Below, piece after piece: positions 53,359 through 61,990 of a stretch of 64,000 nt of DNA. Location of the stretch: assembly GCA_050014495.1 (NCBI GenBank), contig JBEKDF010000004.1, forward strand, positions 5,302 through 69,301, given 5' to 3'. Below the pieces are notes generated by a model, which worked only from the letters and a program-made list of their open reading frames with translations, did no database searches and was not told where the DNA came from. The first letter of the stretch is position 1; every line of letters starts with the position of its first letter. The translations under genes were made by a program, and so were the position numbers. This DNA comes from Candidatus Bathyarchaeia archaeon (GTDB lineage Archaea; Thermoproteota; Bathyarchaeia; TCS64).

Positions 53359-53668
53359 CTAGATCTCAGAAAAACGTATCATCGCTGCATATTAAGATTT
53401 ATACAATAATATTGGAGTAATTTCATTATAATAGTTTTTTTCATCATTGGAATTGTAATAAATACAAAAAATGATGCGAAGTTAAGAAACATGTATGGAG
53501 GCAAATTAGGATTTTTAATTGCGTTGAACATGTGCACACGAACTGTTATGAAGTTATTATTAGACCTTGTCGCTCACTATTCACAGCGATTATTTTACAT
53601 GCTTTATTCTATTTTTAAGGGGCGTTCGTGCTTGCGACACATGAATTTAGACTAGGTGATGATTGATA

Positions 53669-54772
53669 CTAGACATTGTTGATGATGTGCGAGAAAGCTG
53701 CTAGAATAATTGAGGTCATTATTAAGAATAATCCGGAGATGACCCCTATTATCAAAACGAATGCAGCTGGGAGGCTTAGTGTTTGGAGATTCAGGTATGT
53801 GGTGAGTAGGTAAGCTCCGGCGGAGATTCCGATAGCCAATGCGAATAGACCGGGGAGCCCGAAGAAGAGGTAAGATTTATTCGACATGGTTATTATGAAG
53901 CTTTGAGATGTTCCCTGGTCCTTCGGCTTTTCCTGGGTTTTTGATTGTTGAGTGACTCCTGTTTGGGATATGGGTGCCTCTTCCGTTTGTGTCTCGTAAT
54001 CGTTTGTATTGAATGGTTCTCTCTGTATCTCGATCGGGACCTCCCTTAGGATGAGTCCGTTACCGGAGGCTATTCCAAGGATCCTAGAGTGGCTCTCTAG
54101 GACTTCTGTGGGGGCTGAGAGGAAGGCTCTTAGGGATTTCTGGGAAAACGCCATGAAGATGCTCGGTAGATCATCTTCGTCGACTGTCTCGGATCGATTT
54201 GTTCCATTTGGTTGTTGGGTTCCAAAGACCACGTCTGCCTCTCTCGATTTGATTAGGGAGAGGATCTTCGGTATCTCTGAGGGTTGAAGGTTGGGGTCTA
54301 CATCCATTATCAGGATCATTGCTGGGTCCAGTTCGAGTGAGCGTTCAAGGAGGGTTCGGAGTGTCGCGAGGCGTCCGAGGCTGGTCTCGTGTCGGATCAC
54401 TGTGGCGCCTAGGCCTGCGGCTACTTGCCCCATGAGATCTTCGGAGCCGTCATCGCATACTAGAATTCGGTCAAAGTATTGCTTAGATTTGATGATAAGT
54501 GGTCCTATCTCCTTCTCTTCGTTGTAGGCTGGGATGCAGAGAAGGGTTGTGATTGGTTTAATCGGGGGTTGTGGGGAGTGTATCAGTTGAGGCATGTATG
54601 TGGCCTCGTTTCTCGCTTCAACCATCTCAACACGTTGTGATGGGTTCGGAGGAGCCTCCGCTGAGGTTTTTGATTTTTTAGTTACTCGTTTTCTGTCTGG
54701 CTTTGAGATTGACTGCATCTTCTTTTTTACTACCTTCGTTTTAACGAAGTTTAATCCGCTATCTGTGTCCAT
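53669..54772 (-). CDS. GT2 glycosyltransferase-like protein with two C-terminal TM helices
   Basis: IPAYNEE, VCDDGS.D, MDVD. Confidence 0.8.
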   Translation of the reverse strand: MDTDSGLNFVKTKVVKKKMQSISKPDRKRVTKKSKTSAEAPPNPSQRVEMVEARNEATYMPQLIHSPQPPIKPITTLLCIPAYNEEKEIGPLIIKSKQYFDRILVCDDGSEDLMGQVAAGLGATVIRHETSLGRLATLRTLLERSLELDPAMILIMDVDPNLQPSEIPKILSLIKSREADVVFGTQQPNGTNRSETVDEDDLPSIFMAFSQKSLRAFLSAPTEVLESHSRILGIASGNGLILREVPIEIQREPFNTNDYETQTEEAPISQTGVTQQSKTQEKPKDQGTSQSFIITMSNKSYLFFGLPGLFALAIGISAGAYLLTTYLNLQTLSLPAAFVLIIGVISGLFLIMTSIILAAFSHIINNV

Positions 54773-54904
54773 GTATTAAACCCCTTAGAATTTCTTTACT
54801 GTTGGACCTGATTTTCCCCTAGTTCCATTTACTTGATTAGAATAAAATGCATTATGGATATGTAATAGCTAATACGGATTTCAAAATAATGAATTGTATA
54901 TCAT

Positions 54905-54914
54905 GCGCGCGCGC
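54905..54914. repeat. (GC)5 tract upstream of a TATA-like box
   Basis: catGCGCGCGCGCacgttgattataatt. Confidence 0.92.
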
Positions 54915-54962
54915 ACGTTGATTATAATTACGTCACACAATCTTACTAGAGAAGTTGACCTT

Positions 54963-55208
54963 ATAAGTGCCACCGCAACTACCAAGAAAACCGACTATAT
55001 CGCTGTGCTAGTCGCTTACATGAGCTTCGTCGTGCTGGGGATACCAAGCGCGATGCGCGCGCGCATCGGTATAGGTGTCTTTCCCGGCATCGCAGGGGTT
55101 CTTGCCGACCGCAGTAGCTTGGAGGCAATACTCTTCGTATTATTTGCGCTGTCAATCATGATGATGATCTTATACGAGTTGACTATTCGAGCGCATTTGG
55201 GGGTGTAG
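54963..55208 (+). pseudogene. MFS transporter remnant: TM1 joined to the last TMs through (GC)5
   Basis: IAVLVAYMSFVVLGIPSAM - [GCGCGCGCGC 55055-55064] - IGIGVFPGIAGVLADRSSLEAILFVLFALSIMMMILYE. Confidence 0.7.
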
Positions 55209-55343
55209 CGGTCATTGAAGGATCGCGTTGATGAGTTTTAGGATGCGTATACGTGCGCGTAAACTATTACCTCACGTTTACAGGACCCTATATGATAACT
55301 CCGAGTTTTTTATATATACCGAGGTTTTCTCCAGTCTGTGATA

Positions 55344-55382
55344 CGCGCGCGCATTTTATCTATTTGTAGGTGAGGCGCGCGC
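55344..55382. repeat. Two alternating GC tracts (55344-55352, 55375-55382)
   Basis: ataCGCGCGCGCat...gagGCGCGCGCtct. Confidence 0.9.
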
Positions 55383-55387
55383 TCTGC

Positions 55388-56510
55388 TTATGTAGCATAT
55401 GATAAGTTGAAGGCATTTGTGAGGCTTACTTTCGGTGTGATGCCATCACTTTTTACGAGGTCCCATGTCCACGACATTGTCCCCTTCCAGCCCCAGAAGT
55501 AGGCGGCGTTTACGCCCATGCTGTTGAGTTTAGCAATGTGGCCACTCATGTAGTTGGCGGTTACTACGGGTGTGGTCGCGTAGCCATTCCACTCAGTCAC
55601 ATCGACCTTCTTCCCATTGGCGTGAGCCGTGTTGATGTAACTCTGGAGGTCATTCCACCCTGATCCCCAGACGGTGTAACTTGGGTTCCGGTGGTCTAGA
55701 TACTCATTCACGAAGGCGACATCGAGGGTGTCAATAGTCTGTGATGTTGTGAATTTTTTAAGCCCAGAGAGGTCGAATCTGACTCCTACCAATACATCTG
55801 GCTTAATAGACTTGACGAATGCTCTCGCATCAGTCCATAGCTGGACTGTCTGCGTCTTCTGTGTCGTCGTCATTGTGTATCTTGAGGGCTCATTCAGCAC
55901 GGAAACGGATTCGATGGGAAGGTCGGATATCTTCTGTATTGTATACCTGATCCAGTTGAGATACTGTGTCTTTCCTGATCCGTTGAGGATTAACCTAGTA
56001 TTTCCTCCCAGATTGGTGGGGGTGGCGAATCCGCTAGTGCTTGATGGGAAGAGTGTGTGGAAGTCAAGATGGGCCTTGAGTTCGGCTGTAGCGGCGGCTT
56101 GTAGGACGTGGCGGAGTTTGGTATATTCGCTGGCGATGTAGTTGTCATTTGATGATTCGTAGGTTCCCCAGTAGAGTACCACGCTCACTCGGTCCATTCC
56201 CGCTGACTTGAAGAGCTCGAAGTTGGCCGCGAAGCGGGTTGGTGAGTCTGACTCGTAGTCGGTCCGGTAGTTGACACCGAGGTCAATGCTTGAGTCTGTC
56301 GTTTTAATTGGGGTGATCGAGCTCTGCGTGTACACCGCCTTTAGAGTGTGAGATGAGCCCATTGTTATATAAATTGGGTTCAAGCTCACTGCGTTGTCCC
56401 CATCCTTGATCCAGTGGTCGAAATGGTACCTAGTAGAGAGTGTTGCTGTGACTTTTACGCTAGGTCCGCTTTGGTAAGTTCTTACGCCTGTTCCTGGGCT
56501 GGTTGAGCCA
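55388..56510 (-). pseudogene. Clan GH-A glycoside hydrolase preceded by a 5'-truncated InlB-B-repeat-like domain
   Basis: LGVNY, NEP acid/base, VTEW nucleophile, FW.W; frame stays open upstream of 56389 (GSTSPGTG...VKVTAT...YHFDHW...NPIYITM...LKAVY) until (GC)5 and TAA. Confidence 0.72.
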
Positions 56511-56520
56511 GCGCGCGCGC
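56511..56520. repeat. (GC)5 tract at the truncation point of the glycoside hydrolase
   Basis: gagccaGCGCGCGCGCacgtttaaaa. Confidence 0.93.
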
Positions 56521-56785
56521 ACGTTTAAAATAATAATAAAATATTAATATTAAAGGGACAAAATATGTTTAAATTTCATTTATTTGATAATTTCCCATTT
56601 TTCACGTTATTTTATTCGCGTGCGTTTGTAATAAGTGAGCGTGAGTGAATAACTGGGTCAGATTTTATAGTTATCCCCACCATCTCACGTTGGTCTTCCC
56701 AAGGCGTTCGGGCAAATGTATCCAGTGAGAATCTTTATCCAGCTGTGCTTGTGTGGTAAGTCGGGTAGTCTTCTATAAGCATTTT

Positions 56786-57529
56786 TTAGAACGTGATATG
56801 GCAGGGGATATTCAGCTTCCCGAATTTCAATGAGAGCTCCTGTCCCATTTGATGGAAGTATTCATCACTGCGCTTATCCTCCAAGCCATATTTCCGATAC
56901 ACCCAGTCAGCGTAGTGGTAATTCATTCGATCAACCAAAACGTAGTCCACCTTCCCGGCTAGGAGTTCCGGGAGAGTCTCTGCCCCCGGGAGGATTGGCG
57001 CGATCATGGCGTAGGTCTTCACTTCGGCTCTATGGAACTCGTCGAGGACCTTTATCCTTTCACCGATTGGGGGCGCGTTGGGCTCGAATAGCTTCCTAGT
57101 CTCATCCTCGGAGGTGGTCACCGTGAATCCGACCTCGAACTCCCTAGCCTCCTTGATGATGTCCATGTCACGTAAGACTAGTGGTGAACGCGTCTGAATT
57201 ACCACCGGCCAATTGTGTTGCTTAAGTATCTCGAGGCATCTCCGCGTTAGTTCGTATTTCTCTTCCAGCGGTTGGTATGGGTCGCAGACGCCGCTCACCC
57301 AGACTCTTCCACGCCTCTTCTTGCTGATCTCCACTCTTAGCAGGTCTGGGGCGTTTATCTTCACGTCGACGAATTCTCCCCAAGGCTCCCTGTGTCCGCT
57401 GAATCTCTTAATGAAGCGGGCGTAGCAGTAGGAGCACCCGTGTTGGCAACCCGTGTAGGGGTTGATGACGTAGGTGTAGACCTTTGAGACGTTGAGGATT
57501 GATTTTGCCTGGACTTCCTTTACCATCAT
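56786..57529 (-). CDS. Radical SAM protein, SPL/Rv2578c-like
   Basis: NPY.GCQHGCSYCYA, DPYQP.E, T.S.L..RD, FEP. Confidence 0.9.
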   Translation of the reverse strand: MMVKEVQAKSILNVSKVYTYVINPYTGCQHGCSYCYARFIKRFSGHREPWGEFVDVKINAPDLLRVEISKKRRGRVWVSGVCDPYQPLEEKYELTRRCLEILKQHNWPVVIQTRSPLVLRDMDIIKEAREFEVGFTVTTSEDETRKLFEPNAPPIGERIKVLDEFHRAEVKTYAMIAPILPGAETLPELLAGKVDYVLVDRMNYHYADWVYRKYGLEDKRSDEYFHQMGQELSLKFGKLNIPCHITF

Positions 57530-57540
57530 GTCTTATCGTC

Positions 57541-58566
57541 TCAGGTTGGTGGGCTCAAGCCCTCGATTGGTGCCGGGAACCAGCCCCCTAATTTAGTCTT
57601 TGCGTCGGCGAGTAACTCAGGAGTGTAGGTCCCAAACATGTTGTTCCCAGAGGAGATGTAGAGCATCTTCCCGAGGTCGAATCCCGCAACTTGGCAAATT
57701 AAAGCGTCGAGCTGAGCCACGCTGCTGCTAACTCCGATGTCCCGTGTGAACGGGGTTGGTCCGTCTCCACGGGTTGCCTCGAATAATCTAATGAGGTTGA
57801 AGAGGGCCCCATATACCTTATCCATGTCGAGTATGCTGTTATCCAGCCTCTTATTCTTGTAGCCATGCCACCACGCTCTCACGGGGTCCGATGTTAAGCC
57901 AAATAGGTTCTTCATCGTGAGGCTCGGGTACTCCTTGCGTTTGCTCAGGCTGATGAGGGTGGAGTCGCGGTGCCTGAATAGTTTCTCGGGGACGAGGCCG
58001 TAGACTTTCTCGATTTTTGCGGGTGGGTATTTTGACTCTACGGCCTCCTTGACGATCTTCGGATCAGCGACATATCCCGCCCATGTCTCGTCGGTGGCGT
58101 TGACATACTCGATGCCGTTATCCTTGAAGAAGTCGAGGTAACCGTATTTCTTCAGGTAGAGGTTATTCTCCTTCATCAAGTGGCTCCAGTGGGGCCCGTT
58201 TATGAACCAGTCCCAGTCGGGGTTCTTTAACAGCCACCTCCAACCTCTGCCCTTAAGGAGCTGGTTCCAGTCCAGCTCCACGCCGTCTGCCATGAATCGT
58301 AGGCCGTTTGGATCCAGTATCCTCGGTCTCCAGAGGAGGTGTCCCTCGGTGACGATGATCTTGCCCTTGGCTGCCGCCGTGATGCATTGTAGAACATCGA
58401 GGTTCTTCGGGTAAATTTTTTCAACTGCTACCATGTCGACTTTGACGATGAGTGGGTCCGAACCTGGTATCTTATTCTTTAGTAGACTCGTCAGTTCTGC
58501 GGGCTTATATACCCTTGAGAACGTCGAATCTCCGATTTGGATGTAGAAGTCATCAAGGGTTAACAA
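57541..58566 (-). CDS. Hypothetical protein, DUF362-like
   Basis: Long ORF with ISLSK.K and T.KNLFG motifs. Confidence 0.6.
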   Translation of the reverse strand: MLTLDDFYIQIGDSTFSRVYKPAELTSLLKNKIPGSDPLIVKVDMVAVEKIYPKNLDVLQCITAAAKGKIIVTEGHLLWRPRILDPNGLRFMADGVELDWNQLLKGRGWRWLLKNPDWDWFINGPHWSHLMKENNLYLKKYGYLDFFKDNGIEYVNATDETWAGYVADPKIVKEAVESKYPPAKIEKVYGLVPEKLFRHRDSTLISLSKRKEYPSLTMKNLFGLTSDPVRAWWHGYKNKRLDNSILDMDKVYGALFNLIRLFEATRGDGPTPFTRDIGVSSSVAQLDALICQVAGFDLGKMLYISSGNNMFGTYTPELLADAKTKLGGWFPAPIEGLSPPT

Positions 58567-58636
58567 TTTGTTTCGTTTATAAAATGTTTTATGAAAAAGC
58601 CTTTGCTTGTATCAAAAGGGCGCGCCTCTGAGCTAA

Positions 58637-58804
58637 TTATGACTTCATCTCCTTACACATCTCCATGATCAATGGGATGAGTTCCCCTAGGTTTGCCCAG
58701 TTCCACTCACCTGCACTAAGGTAAATATCCTCATTAGACTCTGAAGATATATCCGCACGGTTTCGTATACGTTCTAGGATTTCCTTGGCCTGCTTAGGAG
58801 TCAT
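58637..58804 (-). CDS. Small orphan ORF (55 aa)
   Basis: MTPKQAKEILERIRNRADISSESNEDIYLSAGEWNWANLGELIPLIMEMCKEMKS with purine-rich upstream ggggatggaag. Confidence 0.4.
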   Translation of the reverse strand: MTPKQAKEILERIRNRADISSESNEDIYLSAGEWNWANLGELIPLIMEMCKEMKS

Positions 58805-59119
58805 CTTCCATCCCCTAAACTTGTACTATTCTCGAACGCACGCTCCGTGGACCCCATGTGAGTGGTAATCCTCCGCATGTGCGACGTGCCATTCCCGTAA
58901 TAGTCGCAGCAGAATTTTTTACTTCCTGCTTCGCTGTGTATAACGTTTCGCATGTTTATGCAATCCTTTACTCAAGTAGTCGAGTACCAGTAATTAAGAC
59001 ATCCAAATTCGCCTAAATGCTATTGTATACGCTGTGTCGGGCCCACAATCTAATCTACCAGACAGCCATATAGCGTGCACGATTTACACATGTATTTTAT
59101 TTATTGGTGATATCAGTTT

Positions 59120-59151
59120 CGCGCGCGCATATGGATTCGAGACTGCGCGCG
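59120..59151. repeat. Two alternating GC tracts (59120-59128, 59145-59151)
   Basis: tttCGCGCGCGCatatg...actGCGCGCGtgcatg. Confidence 0.9.
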
Positions 59152-59313
59152 TGCATGGCCCCCAACCCAATGATTATTCCACTTTCTAATTCTTCCCTTC
59201 CTCTACTCATCTAATCTTCGTGCCGCGATGTATCATTAATCTGGTTTTCAGTATCTACTATTATTATAGCCTTACATTTTCCATTTTGTTTAGATATGGA
59301 GAAGAACTGATCT

Positions 59314-59493
59314 ATGGTTCAGGTTTTAATTGATATTCCCGATGAGCTGGTTCACGACATGGAGGATACTATGAATATCTATGAGCTGAGCATTGATGAG
59401 CTAGTTGTGACGGCTGTTAGGCATCTGGTGAATAAGCGCCAGCGTAAATCCTCTGCTCCGTTGATTCGTACTCGGCCCCTAGAATTCTTGTAG
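59314..59493 (+). CDS. Small ribbon-helix-helix-like protein (59 aa)
   Basis: MVQVLIDIPDELV...SIDELVVTAVRHLV; followed 4 nt later by (GC)4 at 59498-59505. Confidence 0.55.
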   Translation: MVQVLIDIPDELVHDMEDTMNIYELSIDELVVTAVRHLVNKRQRKSSAPLIRTRPLEFL

Positions 59494-59551
59494 CTTTGCG
59501 CGCGCTGCACATGCACAGAGTTATCTATGATTCCGAACATATTCACAGTTA

Positions 59552-60238
59552 ATGGATACCAAGAAGAATCCCTCGAAGAGTACTGCAAAAATAAAAGTGA
59601 CTGAGAACGGTCCTTACATAGTCACAGGGAGTATTCTCCTCTCCGAACAGATAATTGGTACCGACGAGGACGGATTCAGTGCCGTGTGGTGCTCAGGGAA
59701 GGAGTATCCCCTACAGGAGAGCTACTCGCTCTGTCGTTGTGGTAAGTCGAAGAACAAGCCTTACTGCGACGGAAGCCACATCACCACCTGGTTTAATGGT
59801 AGGGAGACTGCGAGCCACGAGCCCTACAGCAAACTCGCAAACAGAATTGATGGTCCCGACCTGAGGCTCATGGACGCCCCTGACCTCTGTGCCTTCGCAA
59901 GGTTCTGCGACCGCGGCGAAAGCGTCTGGAGCTATACACGAGACTCTAACGATCCAGAGGCGAAGAAGATTGCCATCGCCCAGGCACGCAACTGCCCCTC
60001 GGGTCGCCTCGTCACCTTGGAAAAGAAGACAAACCAAGTTTACGATGAGGGCATCGAGAAGTCTATAGTGGTTGTCGAGGACCCTCAGATGGGGTGCCCT
60101 GGGCCGATATGGGTCCGCGGAGGTATACCCATAGAGGATGCGAATGGGAAGCCCTATGAGATCAGGAACCGCGTCACTCTCTGCCGGTGTGGGAAATCGG
60201 GGAACAAGCCATTATGCGATGGCTCACACGCTCGTTAG
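59552..60238 (+). CDS. CDGSH iron-sulfur protein (two CDGSH domains plus central 4Fe-4S domain)
   Basis: LCRCG.S.NKP.CDGSH twice; C...RFC...CPSG.L. Confidence 0.92.
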   Translation: MDTKKNPSKSTAKIKVTENGPYIVTGSILLSEQIIGTDEDGFSAVWCSGKEYPLQESYSLCRCGKSKNKPYCDGSHITTWFNGRETASHEPYSKLANRIDGPDLRLMDAPDLCAFARFCDRGESVWSYTRDSNDPEAKKIAIAQARNCPSGRLVTLEKKTNQVYDEGIEKSIVVVEDPQMGCPGPIWVRGGIPIEDANGKPYEIRNRVTLCRCGKSGNKPLCDGSHAR

Positions 60239-60323
60239 TCTCTTGCGCATCGTACGCGAGATTCTGGTAAGACTCTTAGCATAAAGTGAGGATTTTTAAT
60301 AGAAACCGACATTAAATAGTATT

Positions 60324-60665
60324 ATGGCGGACCTCAACCAGGCGATAATCGTTATAATAGCAGGCATAGCAGTGGCCATCGCTGATGGCCTCATTAAGAA
60401 GACGGCCATCGGCGCTTCCCTAACCGATGCGCTAAAGAACCCTCTCATGATAGGCGTCGTGTTTCTGTATCTCGCCCAGATTGCATTTTTCACCTACGTC
60501 TTCGTGAATGGTTGGCAGCTGGGGGTTGTCGGGATTCTACAGATGGTGGCTTACTCCGTGTTTGTGCTGATCACAGGCGTCTTCATATTCAAGGAGAGCT
60601 TCACCGTGACTCAGTACTTAGGTTTTGTTTTGGCTATTAGTGGCGCTGTGCTGATCAATTTATGA
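60324..60665 (+). CDS. Small four-TM DMT/EamA-like membrane protein
   Basis: Four hydrophobic helices; G..IFKE......LG..L...G C-terminal pattern. Confidence 0.72.
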   Translation: MADLNQAIIVIIAGIAVAIADGLIKKTAIGASLTDALKNPLMIGVVFLYLAQIAFFTYVFVNGWQLGVVGILQMVAYSVFVLITGVFIFKESFTVTQYLGFVLAISGAVLINL

Positions 60666-60813
60666 ATTCAAATGCGCTCCGTTATCTTATCCCTTAAACC
60701 CCAATATATTCTGTAGACATCTGTTTCCTCGAATTCTTGGGCGTGCGTATAAGCGGCCCGCGAGTCACGATATAACGGTAGAAGAATCAAGAGCAGTGTC
60801 TGCGTTATGCACT

Positions 60814-60996
60814 TTATTCTATCAGATGCTTTCCTTCATCCATGATCTTGCTACCGTCGACTCAAATCGATGACTTCGCAATGGCGCGTCCGACTTCCAC
60901 TGTGAGGCGGTCTGTGAGAATGAGAACATGTTCACCTCTATTCATCGACATGCAAACCTCCACAACGTTTCTGGCGCCTTGTTCTAATGTTCCCAA
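60814..60996 (-). pseudogene. M29/AmpS-like aminopeptidase relic: N-terminal ~43 aa fused to last ~17 aa
   Basis: Hand translation LGTLEQGARNVVEVCMSMNRGEHVLILTD...GRAIAKSS|I*VDGSKIMDEGKHLIE*. Confidence 0.6.
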
Positions 60997-61045
60997 ATCA
61001 ATAACACACTTACAGGATTTTCTTATATGTTATATAATATGTATA

Positions 61046-61054
61046 CGCGCGCGC
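61046..61054. repeat. Alternating GC tract beside a TATA-rich element
   Basis: ttatataatatgtataCGCGCGCGCcac. Confidence 0.9.
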
Positions 61055-61189
61055 CACACCACCACACACCTTTGTCATCCCGGCTAAAACCATAAGCCAT
61101 CCGAGATCATCATTGCAAAATAGTTAAAGTGAAAGCTAACAAGGAAAACGTTTAAGACTAACCTGAACCTTTGCCGCCGTCGAATAAGA

Positions 61190-61990
61190 ATGCCGAAACC
61201 CAAGAAATCCTTAAGCGAACTCGTCTCCCTCAAGGGGAGGGAGGCCCTCATCACAGGTTCAGCCGTAGGCATAGGAAGAGCCATAGCCAACCGCTATGCT
61301 GAGGCGGGAGCCGACCTCATACTAGTGGACATCAATAAGGAGAAGCTTGAGGAGGCTGCCGAAGAACTCAAGGAGTGGGGCGTAGACGTTGCGCCGAAGA
61401 GGATCGACCTATCCAAAAAAGCTGAAATCGACCACTTATGGGTGGAACTCGAGGGCTCGGAGCCCGACACCCTCGTCAACAACGCGGGCATCTACCCATT
61501 CTGCGACTTCCTCGACATCGATGAGGCCCTCTTCGAGAAGGTCCACTCCATCAATCTCGAGGCCGTGCTATGGATGTGCCAAAACATGTTAAGTGCCCGG
61601 AAGAGGATGGGTGGCGTCATCATCAACGTCAGCAGCATCGAGGCCGTCCTCCCGTTTAAGAAGGGAATGATCCACTACGACGCCTCGAAAGCGGGGATCA
61701 TCGGCCTCACACGTGGTCTCGCCCGAGACTTCAGCGACAAGGGTTTCCGGGTAAACGCCCTCCTCCCCGGTGGCATAGTTACCCCAGGCACAAAGGGGGC
61801 GGCCACAGAGTTCTTCAAGGGGAATATTGGCCTAGCTAAAACGGGATACGATTTCATGAGTAGGTTACCCATGGGGCGTGTGGGTGATCCAGACGAGGTC
61901 GCCCGCGCGGCGCTGTTCCTCGCCTCCGACCTATCCAGTTATGTGACGGGGGTCCTACTCCCAGTCGATGGTGGCTTTCTCTCCGCCTGA
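61190..61990 (+). CDS. Short-chain dehydrogenase/reductase
   Basis: TGSAVGIG, NNAG, YDASK, PG, VDGG. Confidence 0.93.
   Translation: MPKPKKSLSELVSLKGREALITGSAVGIGRAIANRYAEAGADLILVDINKEKLEEAAEELKEWGVDVAPKRIDLSKKAEIDHLWVELEGSEPDTLVNNAGIYPFCDFLDIDEALFEKVHSINLEAVLWMCQNMLSARKRMGGVIINVSSIEAVLPFKKGMIHYDASKAGIIGLTRGLARDFSDKGFRVNALLPGGIVTPGTKGAATEFFKGNIGLAKTGYDFMSRLPMGRVGDPDEVARAALFLASDLSSYVTGVLLPVDGGFLSA

Follow-up and report, generated by a model that had tools for sequence, protein, structure and literature searches.

An alternating-GC run at the join of a collapsed MFS_1 gene in a Bathyarchaeia archaeon, a candidate scar of an insertion sequence with GC-capped ends

The MFS_1 remnant and its join

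The window (the whole stretch of 64,000 nucleotides analysed here, from a Candidatus Bathyarchaeia archaeon) contains an open reading frame (ORF) of 104 aa plus a stop codon, 54894–55208(+), which is the longest open frame spanning what is left of an MFS gene. The features of this region are collected in Table 1. MFS transporters have a fold of about 12 helices, and the original prediction was that this gene had collapsed to a TM1-like piece followed by a TM11–12-like piece. This proved to be correct: BLASTP aligned ORF residues 29–54 with residues 5–30 of an intact 404-aa MFS_1 protein (P0001; 22 of 26 identical) and ORF residues 64–101 with its residues 360–397 (27 of 38 identical), and a codon-by-codon reading of the nucleotide sequences moved the start of the C-terminal match back to residue 354, so that the C-terminal coding match (55065–55190) covers residues 354–397. 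The two halves are opposite ends of one gene, corresponding to the start of TM1 and to the end of TM11 together with TM12. PF07690 (MFS_1) was identified in four matching 404-aa proteins with E values of 4e-19 to 9e-18, in a word-indexed search of longer proteins only, and both stumps align to PF07690 proteins at 71%–85% identity. At the nucleotide level, the N-terminal stump is 72%–81% identical to its orthologues. The deletion removed approximately 323 codons (about 970 bp, the middle ~80% of the gene), close to the roughly 300 that had been expected, and three codons (Arg-Ala-Arg) were gained.

Table 1. Features around the MFS remnant (positions in the window)
Feature	Position	Strand	Basis and remarks
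MFS remnant frame	54894..55208	+	ORF list; pseudogene remnant, not a conserved gene
Second (GC)5 run, directly upstream of the conserved MFS promoter region	54905..54914		Run scan, alignment
MFS 5′ end and conserved promoter-like upstream region	54915..54977	+	Alignment to five orthologous loci
N-terminal stump, residues 5–30 of a 404-aa MFS_1 protein, start of TM1	54978..55055	+	BLASTP, orthologue DNA
(GC)5 run at the MFS join	55055..55064		Codon comparison with orthologue DNAs; non-parental core at least 55057–55062
C-terminal stump, residues 354 to ~397, end of TM11 and TM12, then a diverged tail	55065..55205	+	BLASTP, codon comparison
Two more runs, after the MFS remnant and before the next gene's stop codon	55344–55352 (9 nt), 55375–55382 (8 nt)		Run scan
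Segment missing in a related strain (sequencing run X12), 517 bp, with CGCGCGCG in its place	56079..56595		Assembled contig
(GC)5 run, next intergenic spacer	56511..56520		Run scan

The 104-aa product matched no Pfam family, and with some 323 of 404 residues gone it has neither the MFS_1 domain nor the 12-helix fold. It has no paralogue in its own 3.1-Mb assembly (95.95% complete), in which just the two pieces of the MFS gene were found, whereas among 41 related genomes the intact gene is present in three of the same genus (76%–80% identity) and in part, at a contig edge, in a fourth. The start codon of one orthologue (L001) is out of frame in the window owing to a 1-nt gap in the alignment, and a proline that is kept in all four intact orthologues compared has been replaced in the C-terminal stump. 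Immediately to the right of the run 54905–54914 the sequence becomes similar to five orthologous loci, and this similarity includes a conserved A/T-rich box; upstream of this run the orthologues are not conserved among themselves either. Synteny was not informative, the single neighbouring match (552 bp, to the locus L011) lying at another position. A conserved protein of about 80 aa with this two-piece form would have spoken against a collapsed gene, and none was found in an exhaustive HMMER search of 1.84 billion representatives, which returned eight sequences: the product of the window itself, two full-length MFS proteins, and five unrelated short fragments or remnants. From its sequence, the locus is what remains of a ruined MFS_1 transporter gene, a pseudogene that is in itself ordinary; pseudogene stumps and deletions mediated by insertion sequences (IS) are commonplace.

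The stumps are joined by GCGCGCGCGC, which is also the end-sequence of an IS family and seems to be the mark of hundreds of further junctions in the same genome. The join is bridged without any difference by contigs from two other public sequencing runs, X4 (54349–55163) and X7 (54963–55194), and we therefore conclude that the join is real DNA and not an assembly artefact. This comparison rests on X4 and X7, since the contigs of X12 leave 54858–55198 uncovered and those of X9 fall 31 letters short of bridging the join.

The left breakpoint can be read in the DNA of 10 intact orthologues (L001, L003, L010–L015, L017 and L019) and the right breakpoint in four (L001, L010, L011 and L013). It had been predicted that intact orthologues would lack GCGCGC at their breakpoints, and no alternating-GC run of 6 nt or more was present at the left site in any of the 10 or at the right site in any of the four. 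On the left, the orthologues have Ser/Gly-Ala-Met followed by a Leu codon and GGN; on the right, they read ...GCY GGC ATY GGN.... In the window, the match to the left parent ends with ATGC and that to the right parent starts at GCATC, and therefore at least GCGCGC (55057–55062) is foreign. The run had originally been regarded as filler. It is indeed foreign, at least 6 nt of it being non-parental, but it is not anonymous: as described below, the same run caps IS ends and recurs at other deletion junctions.

The (GC)5 core (55055–55064), which is in frame within the ORF, forms the middle of a palindrome of 18 bp (55051–55068). The palindrome is present and perfect as originally described, but the 4-nt arms beside the core are parental MFS sequence, and genome-wide, arms of at least 4 nt flank 4 of 263 even-length runs against 2.2 expected from shuffled pairs of flanks, which is no excess. 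It follows that the GC core is the real feature and that the perfection over 18 bp is largely coincidence. An origin of the palindrome from a hairpin or from P-nucleotides was rejected, because arms occur at the shuffled-flank frequency and are parental here. The right parental site is itself a GC-rich palindrome (GCCGGC in three of the four orthologues), which fits the palindrome preference reported for the IS1182 family in excerpts of PMC5678879.

Alternating-GC runs and an insertion sequence with GC-capped ends

The sequence GCGCGCGC occurs 15 times (at 11 sites) in the window, compared to 0.56 expected, and none of 100 shuffled sequences reached 15. Counting one site with CGCGCGCG, there are 12 runs of at least 8 nt in the window. 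The genome as a whole has 413 alternating-GC runs of at least 8 nt in 3,108,400 bp, while other dinucleotide repeats of equal length number 30–75. The distribution of run lengths decays geometrically to 7 nt, forms a plateau at 8–10 nt, and then collapses: runs of 8, 9, 10, 11 and 12 nt number 166, 112, 81, 3 and 1 between genes and 26, 32, 30, 2 and 3 within them. The drop from 10 to 12 nt is also seen in relatives (62 to 2 in G011, 32 to 0 in G013, 59 to 11 in G016, 38 to 5 in G021, and 15 to 2 in G015).

Runs are some 20–30 times denser in spacers than in genes. Only 94 of the 413 lie in stop-to-stop frames of at least 120 codons, although such frames make up 85% of the genome, and with a crude set of genes, 87 runs fall within genes, 292 between them and 34 close to the ends of contigs. 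Those within genes favour short ORFs and the termini of ORFs (38 of 87 lie in the outer 20%), and runs are often no more than 40 nt from a stop codon (80 of 214 distances). They are also clustered, with 20% of the gaps between runs being 500 bp or less, compared to 6% expected. Lone runs showed neither flanking repeats nor a longer consensus beyond a T at position −1 (56%) and an A at −2 (36%).

When the flanks of all runs were compared with one another, many runs proved to adjoin repeated DNA, in many cases some 114 nt away from the end of a contig. The reference copy of the repeat is an IS of 1284 bp (contig C5 of the same genome, 82611–83894) that encodes a 331-aa transposase, in which DDE_Tnp_1 (PF01609, 1.4e-13) and DUF772 (PF05598, 1.9e-9) were both identified above their cut-offs. 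In NCBIfam, the transposase scores 94.7 bits against IS1182 (cut-off 270, matching the N-terminal part only) and 84 bits against IS5_4 (cut-off 140, full length). Both scores are below the cut-offs, and we therefore keep the family assignment at “IS5/IS1182-like”. The terminal inverted repeats, the many copies and the non-autonomous miniatures are those of an IS5/IS1182-like element. At least 10 IS subfamilies have a capped end, one of them with a transposase that is only about 33% identical, and the closest relatives of the IS are carried by Candidatus Bathyarchaeota/Bathyarchaeia MAGs.

The association between IS ends and runs is very tight. A pattern scan found 64 IS ends in this genome, all of which abut a run of 5–10 nt, and a scan that did not require a run found no further IS end bearing one of at least 4 nt. 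The latter scan did find three clear IS ends beside degraded (mutated) runs, and two others are parted from their run by an IS110-family element (identified with Pfam), inserted exactly between the run and the inverted repeat. We then assembled a set of 22 complete IS or miniature elements from seven genomes (full copies of ~1260–1294 bp, miniatures of 380–527 bp), in which 43 of 44 ends carry a run of at least 4 nt, always in the phase ...GC|TGSC. This phase is fixed, and is kept between distant subfamilies, indicating that the run, or at least its inner part, is a piece of the element.

No direct repeat was found outside the runs in any of the 22 elements, and thus nothing that resembles a target-site duplication there. 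Because (GC)n is at once a direct and an inverted repeat, the sequence alone is compatible with the runs themselves being duplications; their unequal lengths, uncorrelated between left and right (rho 0.17 in the 22 elements), argue against this. Comparison of copies suggests that the runs arrive with the IS: where an IS end is nested within another IS copy (contig C33), the same position has no run in two reference copies, and the second copy of one IS flank, 94% identical (C19 compared to C81), has no run there.

Runs at other deletion junctions and in related genomes

The MFS join is not the only deletion junction marked by a run. One IS copy (C61, 6042–7308; runs of 10 and 8 nt) lies inside a gene for a 669-aa DUF262 and HNH protein, separating residues 153–301 from residues 599–669, with about 297 codons deleted between 301 and 599. 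A run-flanked IS at the centre of a deletion would be the stage preceding that seen in the MFS gene. Among nine internal breakpoints of truncated or internally deleted IS copies, six carry a run, one of these being tied to a nested IS end, and three do not. At another of the six, the two sides of a 452-bp internal deletion are joined by a 10-nt run that is lacking in the parental sequences. In addition, an IS110-like copy is truncated at a run. Joins within IS copies recur at close positions (634 and 646; 1071 and 1086).

A deletion of this kind is polymorphic in the window itself. In a related strain approximately 98%–99% identical, a contig assembled from X12 joins 56078 to 56596 through CGCGCGCG, omitting a segment that holds the run at 56511–56520 and the first ~100 codons of ORF 55388–56389(−). 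Neither breakpoint has a GC run in the window. The evidence is a single contig with a depth of 4.98 and 57 letters on its shorter side. Points at which the assembly branches, with one branch starting in a run (C33/C73 and C19/C69), suggest more such polymorphisms.

A second MFS gene has been lost in a comparable way. Three metagenome contigs from another species (L085–L087) carry a remnant that is C-terminal only, with a run-bearing join 3 nt from the right breakpoint of the window; its left flank is unrelated and there is no synteny. Between the window and L085–L087, the C-terminal stumps differ with pN 0.157 and pS 0.74, similar to comparisons of intact genes, from which we conclude that the two losses were separate and fairly recent. 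An ancient event common to both was rejected, on the basis of this ratio and the missing synteny. Both remnants are without the proline kept in the four intact orthologues, and the two differences within the L085–L087 remnants are both non-synonymous. Judging from the sequences at these recurrent positions, the breakpoints are non-random.

We then compared the occurrence of runs, IS and Ku in 41 related genomes. GCGCGCGC was found in all 24 other genomes of the taxonomic family, with 1 to 402 matches each, whereas in the order's sister families seven of the eight genomes have no run, the eighth has one, and the IS is present in none. The capped-end pattern occurs in 13 of the 41 relatives, and the control gave one hit. 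The number of runs rises with that of transposase matches (Spearman 0.70 for all 41 genomes, 0.58 within the family), a correlation that is overstated because the genomes are not independent. As MAGs also often lose IS copies, we take it as supportive only. Some genomes have many matches to GCGCGCGC and few or no IS: G015 has 177 matches with no transposase hit and no IS end in 20 contigs, G013 has 351 with no transposase hit and one IS end, and G021, a closed genome, has 250, together with transposase hits that are all distant and one run that truncates a transposase ORF. We therefore consider that runs in these genomes are old scars, or scars of IS subfamilies that were not queried. The share of full 10-mers there, 8%–9% against ~15%, agrees weakly with the former.

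A Ku homologue was identified in 16 of the 41 genomes, nearly all of the same genus. It is present in G001 and G010, which have one run each, and was not found in G021 with its 250 matches. The runs therefore do not follow Ku, contrary to what would be expected if they were filler from Ku-dependent end joining.

Proposed origin of the run and comparison with known systems

The best explanation of the GC run at the MFS join is that it is the signature of a Bathyarchaeial IS5/IS1182-like element whose ends are capped with alternating GC. We think it probable that the join was produced by an IS-mediated deletion followed by loss of the IS, leaving its terminal run behind as a scar. One or two copies of an IS of this family would have entered the MFS gene at GC-rich sites near codons 30 and 354, and the ~970 bp between these sites would have been lost by IS-mediated deletion, through either intramolecular transposition or recombination between two copies. 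Later the IS itself would have been lost, and one terminal run would have remained to join the stumps, in frame by chance. A single run of no more than 10 nt could result from slippage or annealing between the self-complementary terminal runs, or from staggered transposase cuts through them. Neither an IS nor an IS fragment or inverted-repeat remnant was found at or near the join or elsewhere in the window (there is no match on its contig, C4), and the IS that we infer to have once lain there is therefore placed by analogy. That the scar forms when the IS leaves is likewise a deduction: no site was found both filled and empty in this genome, where second copies of six IS flanks exist and none shows both sides, and the contigs assembled from other sequencing runs contain no IS-occupied allele in 53500–61500.

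The same observations can be read in other ways. Host end joining might seal any double-strand break with a short self-complementary alternating-GC tail, so that no IS would be needed at the MFS site. Such a process would account for runs at deletion junctions without an IS, for IS ends that lack a target duplication and have run lengths that vary beside identical IS copies, and for the genomes rich in runs and poor in IS (G015, G013 and G021); there is a Ku homologue in the genus, and for bacteria, extracts from PMC11708052 propose that IS can insert into breaks already present and do so without duplications. However, the phase of the run relative to the inverted repeat is fixed at 64 of 64 ends in this genome and at 43 of 44 in the 22 elements, and it is kept between IS subfamilies that are 33% identical, as expected of a part of the element rather than of filler. 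Furthermore, breakpoints cluster at particular sites and the runs do not track Ku (G001 and G010 compared to G021). It also counts against this explanation that no polymerase is known to us to synthesise strictly alternating GC stretches no longer than 10 nt, and we consider it quite unlikely. Another reading is that the runs are pre-existing functional or structural motifs, such as Z-DNA or cruciform-forming regulatory sites, which are targeted and duplicated by the IS, the run in the MFS gene being there by chance. The enrichment of runs in spacers and near stop codons would fit with this, as would a second copy of one IS site, 92% identical, which has a degenerate palindromic run (C71 compared to C63), and the targeting of palindromes reported for the IS1182 family in the extracts of PMC5678879. 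Against it, a run is missing from both MFS breakpoints in the intact orthologues, and runs stand at breakpoints within genes and IS copies for which the parental sequence is without a run. Moreover, the lengths on the left and right are uncorrelated, several pairs would need targets of 11–13 nt, lengths that are almost absent, and the sister-family genomes have one run between the eight of them. We regard this origin as decidedly improbable.

Two simpler possibilities concern the MFS gene only. An ordinary microhomology or slippage deletion could in principle have drawn its GC run from local sequence, given that GGCAT occurs on both parental sides (codons 32–33 and 353–354) and that the left breakpoint is preceded, at a distance of 3 nt, by GCGCG. 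We find this very hard to sustain, since a deletion at GGCAT would yield ...ATG CTC GGC ATC..., which is shorter than the observed join and unlike it; in fact seven bases replace four, at least 6 nt are non-parental, so that the join does not equal the sequence shared by the two sides, and the same run of 8–10 nt is present at unrelated junctions. The fusion might also be a functional two-helix mini-protein under selection, as its open frame across the join, the retained promoter-like box and the low pN between the C-terminal stumps of two species could be taken to imply. The prospect is extremely slight: there is no conserved family of the two-piece form, the remnant in the other species has an unrelated N-terminus, the L001 start codon is out of frame here, both remnants have lost the conserved proline, and both differences within L085–L087 are non-synonymous. 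An in-frame join has in any case a chance of one in three.

Within the preferred reading, an IS-mediated deletion followed by loss of the IS, simple slippage accounts neither for the limit of 10 nt nor for the uneven outer edge that runs show next to identical IS copies. A more specific mechanism, which we offer as possible though unlikely, is a self-sealing transposon. Its transposase would cleave one strand at one edge of a 10-bp self-complementary (GC)5 cap and the other strand at the opposite edge, after which both the departing element and the donor DNA would retain a single-stranded (GC)5 tail. Annealing and ligation of the two donor tails would produce a 10-bp scar, while the element would restore its caps where it inserts next, and no target would be duplicated. 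If true, this would account for the limit of 10 nt, the fixed phase, the lone runs and the missing duplications, and each run would be a permanent, countable trace of a past IS visit and of the deletions shaping Bathyarchaeial genomes.

Several known systems resemble parts of this picture. The stumps match 404-aa members of MFS_1 (PF07690) but differ from them in that ~80% of the protein is gone. Cut-and-paste transposons such as Tc1/mariner leave excision footprints, and the run would be like these in being a short sequence, derived from element or target, at a donor site that self-complementary overhangs could reseal. Seamless resealing through complementary overhangs is described for piggyBac in the extracted text of PMC7351741. 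The mark seen here differs from the footprints in those extracts in being longer (8–10 nt) and often accompanied by deletions of 450–970 bp, and its origin as a footprint is putative.

A closer parallel is provided by the “IS-Del” events described in bacteria, in which an IS is associated with a deletion and no target-site duplication is present (Ngan et al., mBio 2024, PMC11708052; bioRxiv 10.1101/2024.06.02.596822; both in extract). As far as these extracts go, in both systems a deletion that lacks a target duplication has an IS5/IS1182-type element in its middle, and the IS copy on C61 of the present genome is an example of the same arrangement. They differ in that here, in the reading we propose, the element is later lost while an alternating-GC mark of 8–10 nt stays, so that the deletions can still be recognised; no comparable mark is described in the extracts of either version of that account (PMC11708052; 10.1101/2024.06.02.596822). 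For the IS1272/IS1182 family, structure-dependent insertion at palindromes, without target duplication and with loss of the target sequence, has been reported (Wan et al., PLoS One 2017, PMC5678879, in extract). The present IS is similar in having a DUF772 and DDE_Tnp_1 transposase with a partial match to NCBIfam IS1182 and, compared with the extracted description, in the lack of duplications outside its ends, the palindromic DNA at its ends, the loss of target DNA and the many sites just downstream of genes. It is different in that it misses the NCBIfam cut-offs and has an archaeal host. The palindromic portion differs too: it consists strictly of (GC)n, does not exceed 10 nt, keeps a fixed phase relative to the inverted repeat, and is found alone at hundreds of sites.

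We found no description of GC-capped IS ends or of GC-run scars in the full-text literature, a coverage that most subscription journals and ISfinder fall outside. Within that coverage the scar signature looks new, the novel part being the strict GC cap that persists alone at hundreds of sites. If the proposed reading is true, each lone (GC)4–5 run is the fossil of an IS visit, with hundreds per genome, across a whole family of uncultured archaea that are globally abundant in sediment and peat. Gene loss and the erosion of spacers could then be read from the sequence after the mobile element has gone, and the runs would mark structural variation at the level of strains, with one such deletion polymorphic in the window. 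The combination of no target duplication, self-complementary caps and a limit of 10 nt points to an unusual transposition chemistry.

IS110-family insertions at the ends of the IS5/IS1182-like element

The IS5/IS1182-like element carries a GC run (an alternating-GC stretch) outermost at both ends, next to its inverted repeat. At two places in the genome assembly of the window's archaeon, this run and the inverted repeat are split exactly by the insertion of an IS110-family element, whose 370-residue product matches DEDD_Tnp_IS110 and Transposase_20. A GC run adjoins the left border of the IS110-family element in all five of its copies or fragments, and the junction between run and repeat seems to be its specific target. 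The IS5/IS1182-like element also interrupts a restriction-type gene, from which approximately 297 codons are gone, the element lying at the break.

Coordinates of the features (G000, the window's own genome assembly; C3, C17, C48 and C61, its contigs)
Feature	Location	Remarks
DUF262+HNH (GmrSD/McrA-like) restriction-type gene	G000:C61:5590-7530	interrupted by IS5/IS1182-like element
IS110-family element inside IS5/IS1182-like end	G000:C48:5777-7090	outside window
IS110-family element inside IS5/IS1182-like end	G000:C17:57461-58774	outside window
Ku homologue	G000:C3:65798-66334	PF02735, E-value ~1e-37
Further GC runs	window 59120-59151	
Further GC run	window 59498-59505	
Further GC run	window 61046-61054	

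Contig ends, masked sequence and the Ku homologue

Among the 184 contig ends of G000, 46 break at a repeat boundary bearing a GC run, and approximately 40 of these are IS ends. Exact 122-nt overlaps are common to many other contig ends and seem to be points where strain variants branch in the assembly graph. In the closed related genome G021 (sequences L098 and L099), stretches read as N (X in translations), and part of its content is therefore not visible.

The Ku homologue was not found in the remaining families searched; it occurs in G000 and 15 related genomes, comprising most genomes of the archaeal genus plus one sister genus.

GC runs, a strain deletion and the probable MFS promoter box in the window

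The further GC runs are clustered within long gene-poor spacers (window 58.6-59.5 kb and 60.7-61.2 kb). A related strain in a freshwater metagenome (run X12) lacks 517 bp (window 56079-56595), with CGCGCGCG in their place (one contig, depth approximately 5), and the deletion removes the start of ORF 55388-56389(-). In the window, the run at 54905-54914 is directly adjoined by an A/T-rich box (54915-54935); this box is conserved in all five orthologous loci aligned and probably served the former MFS gene as its promoter.
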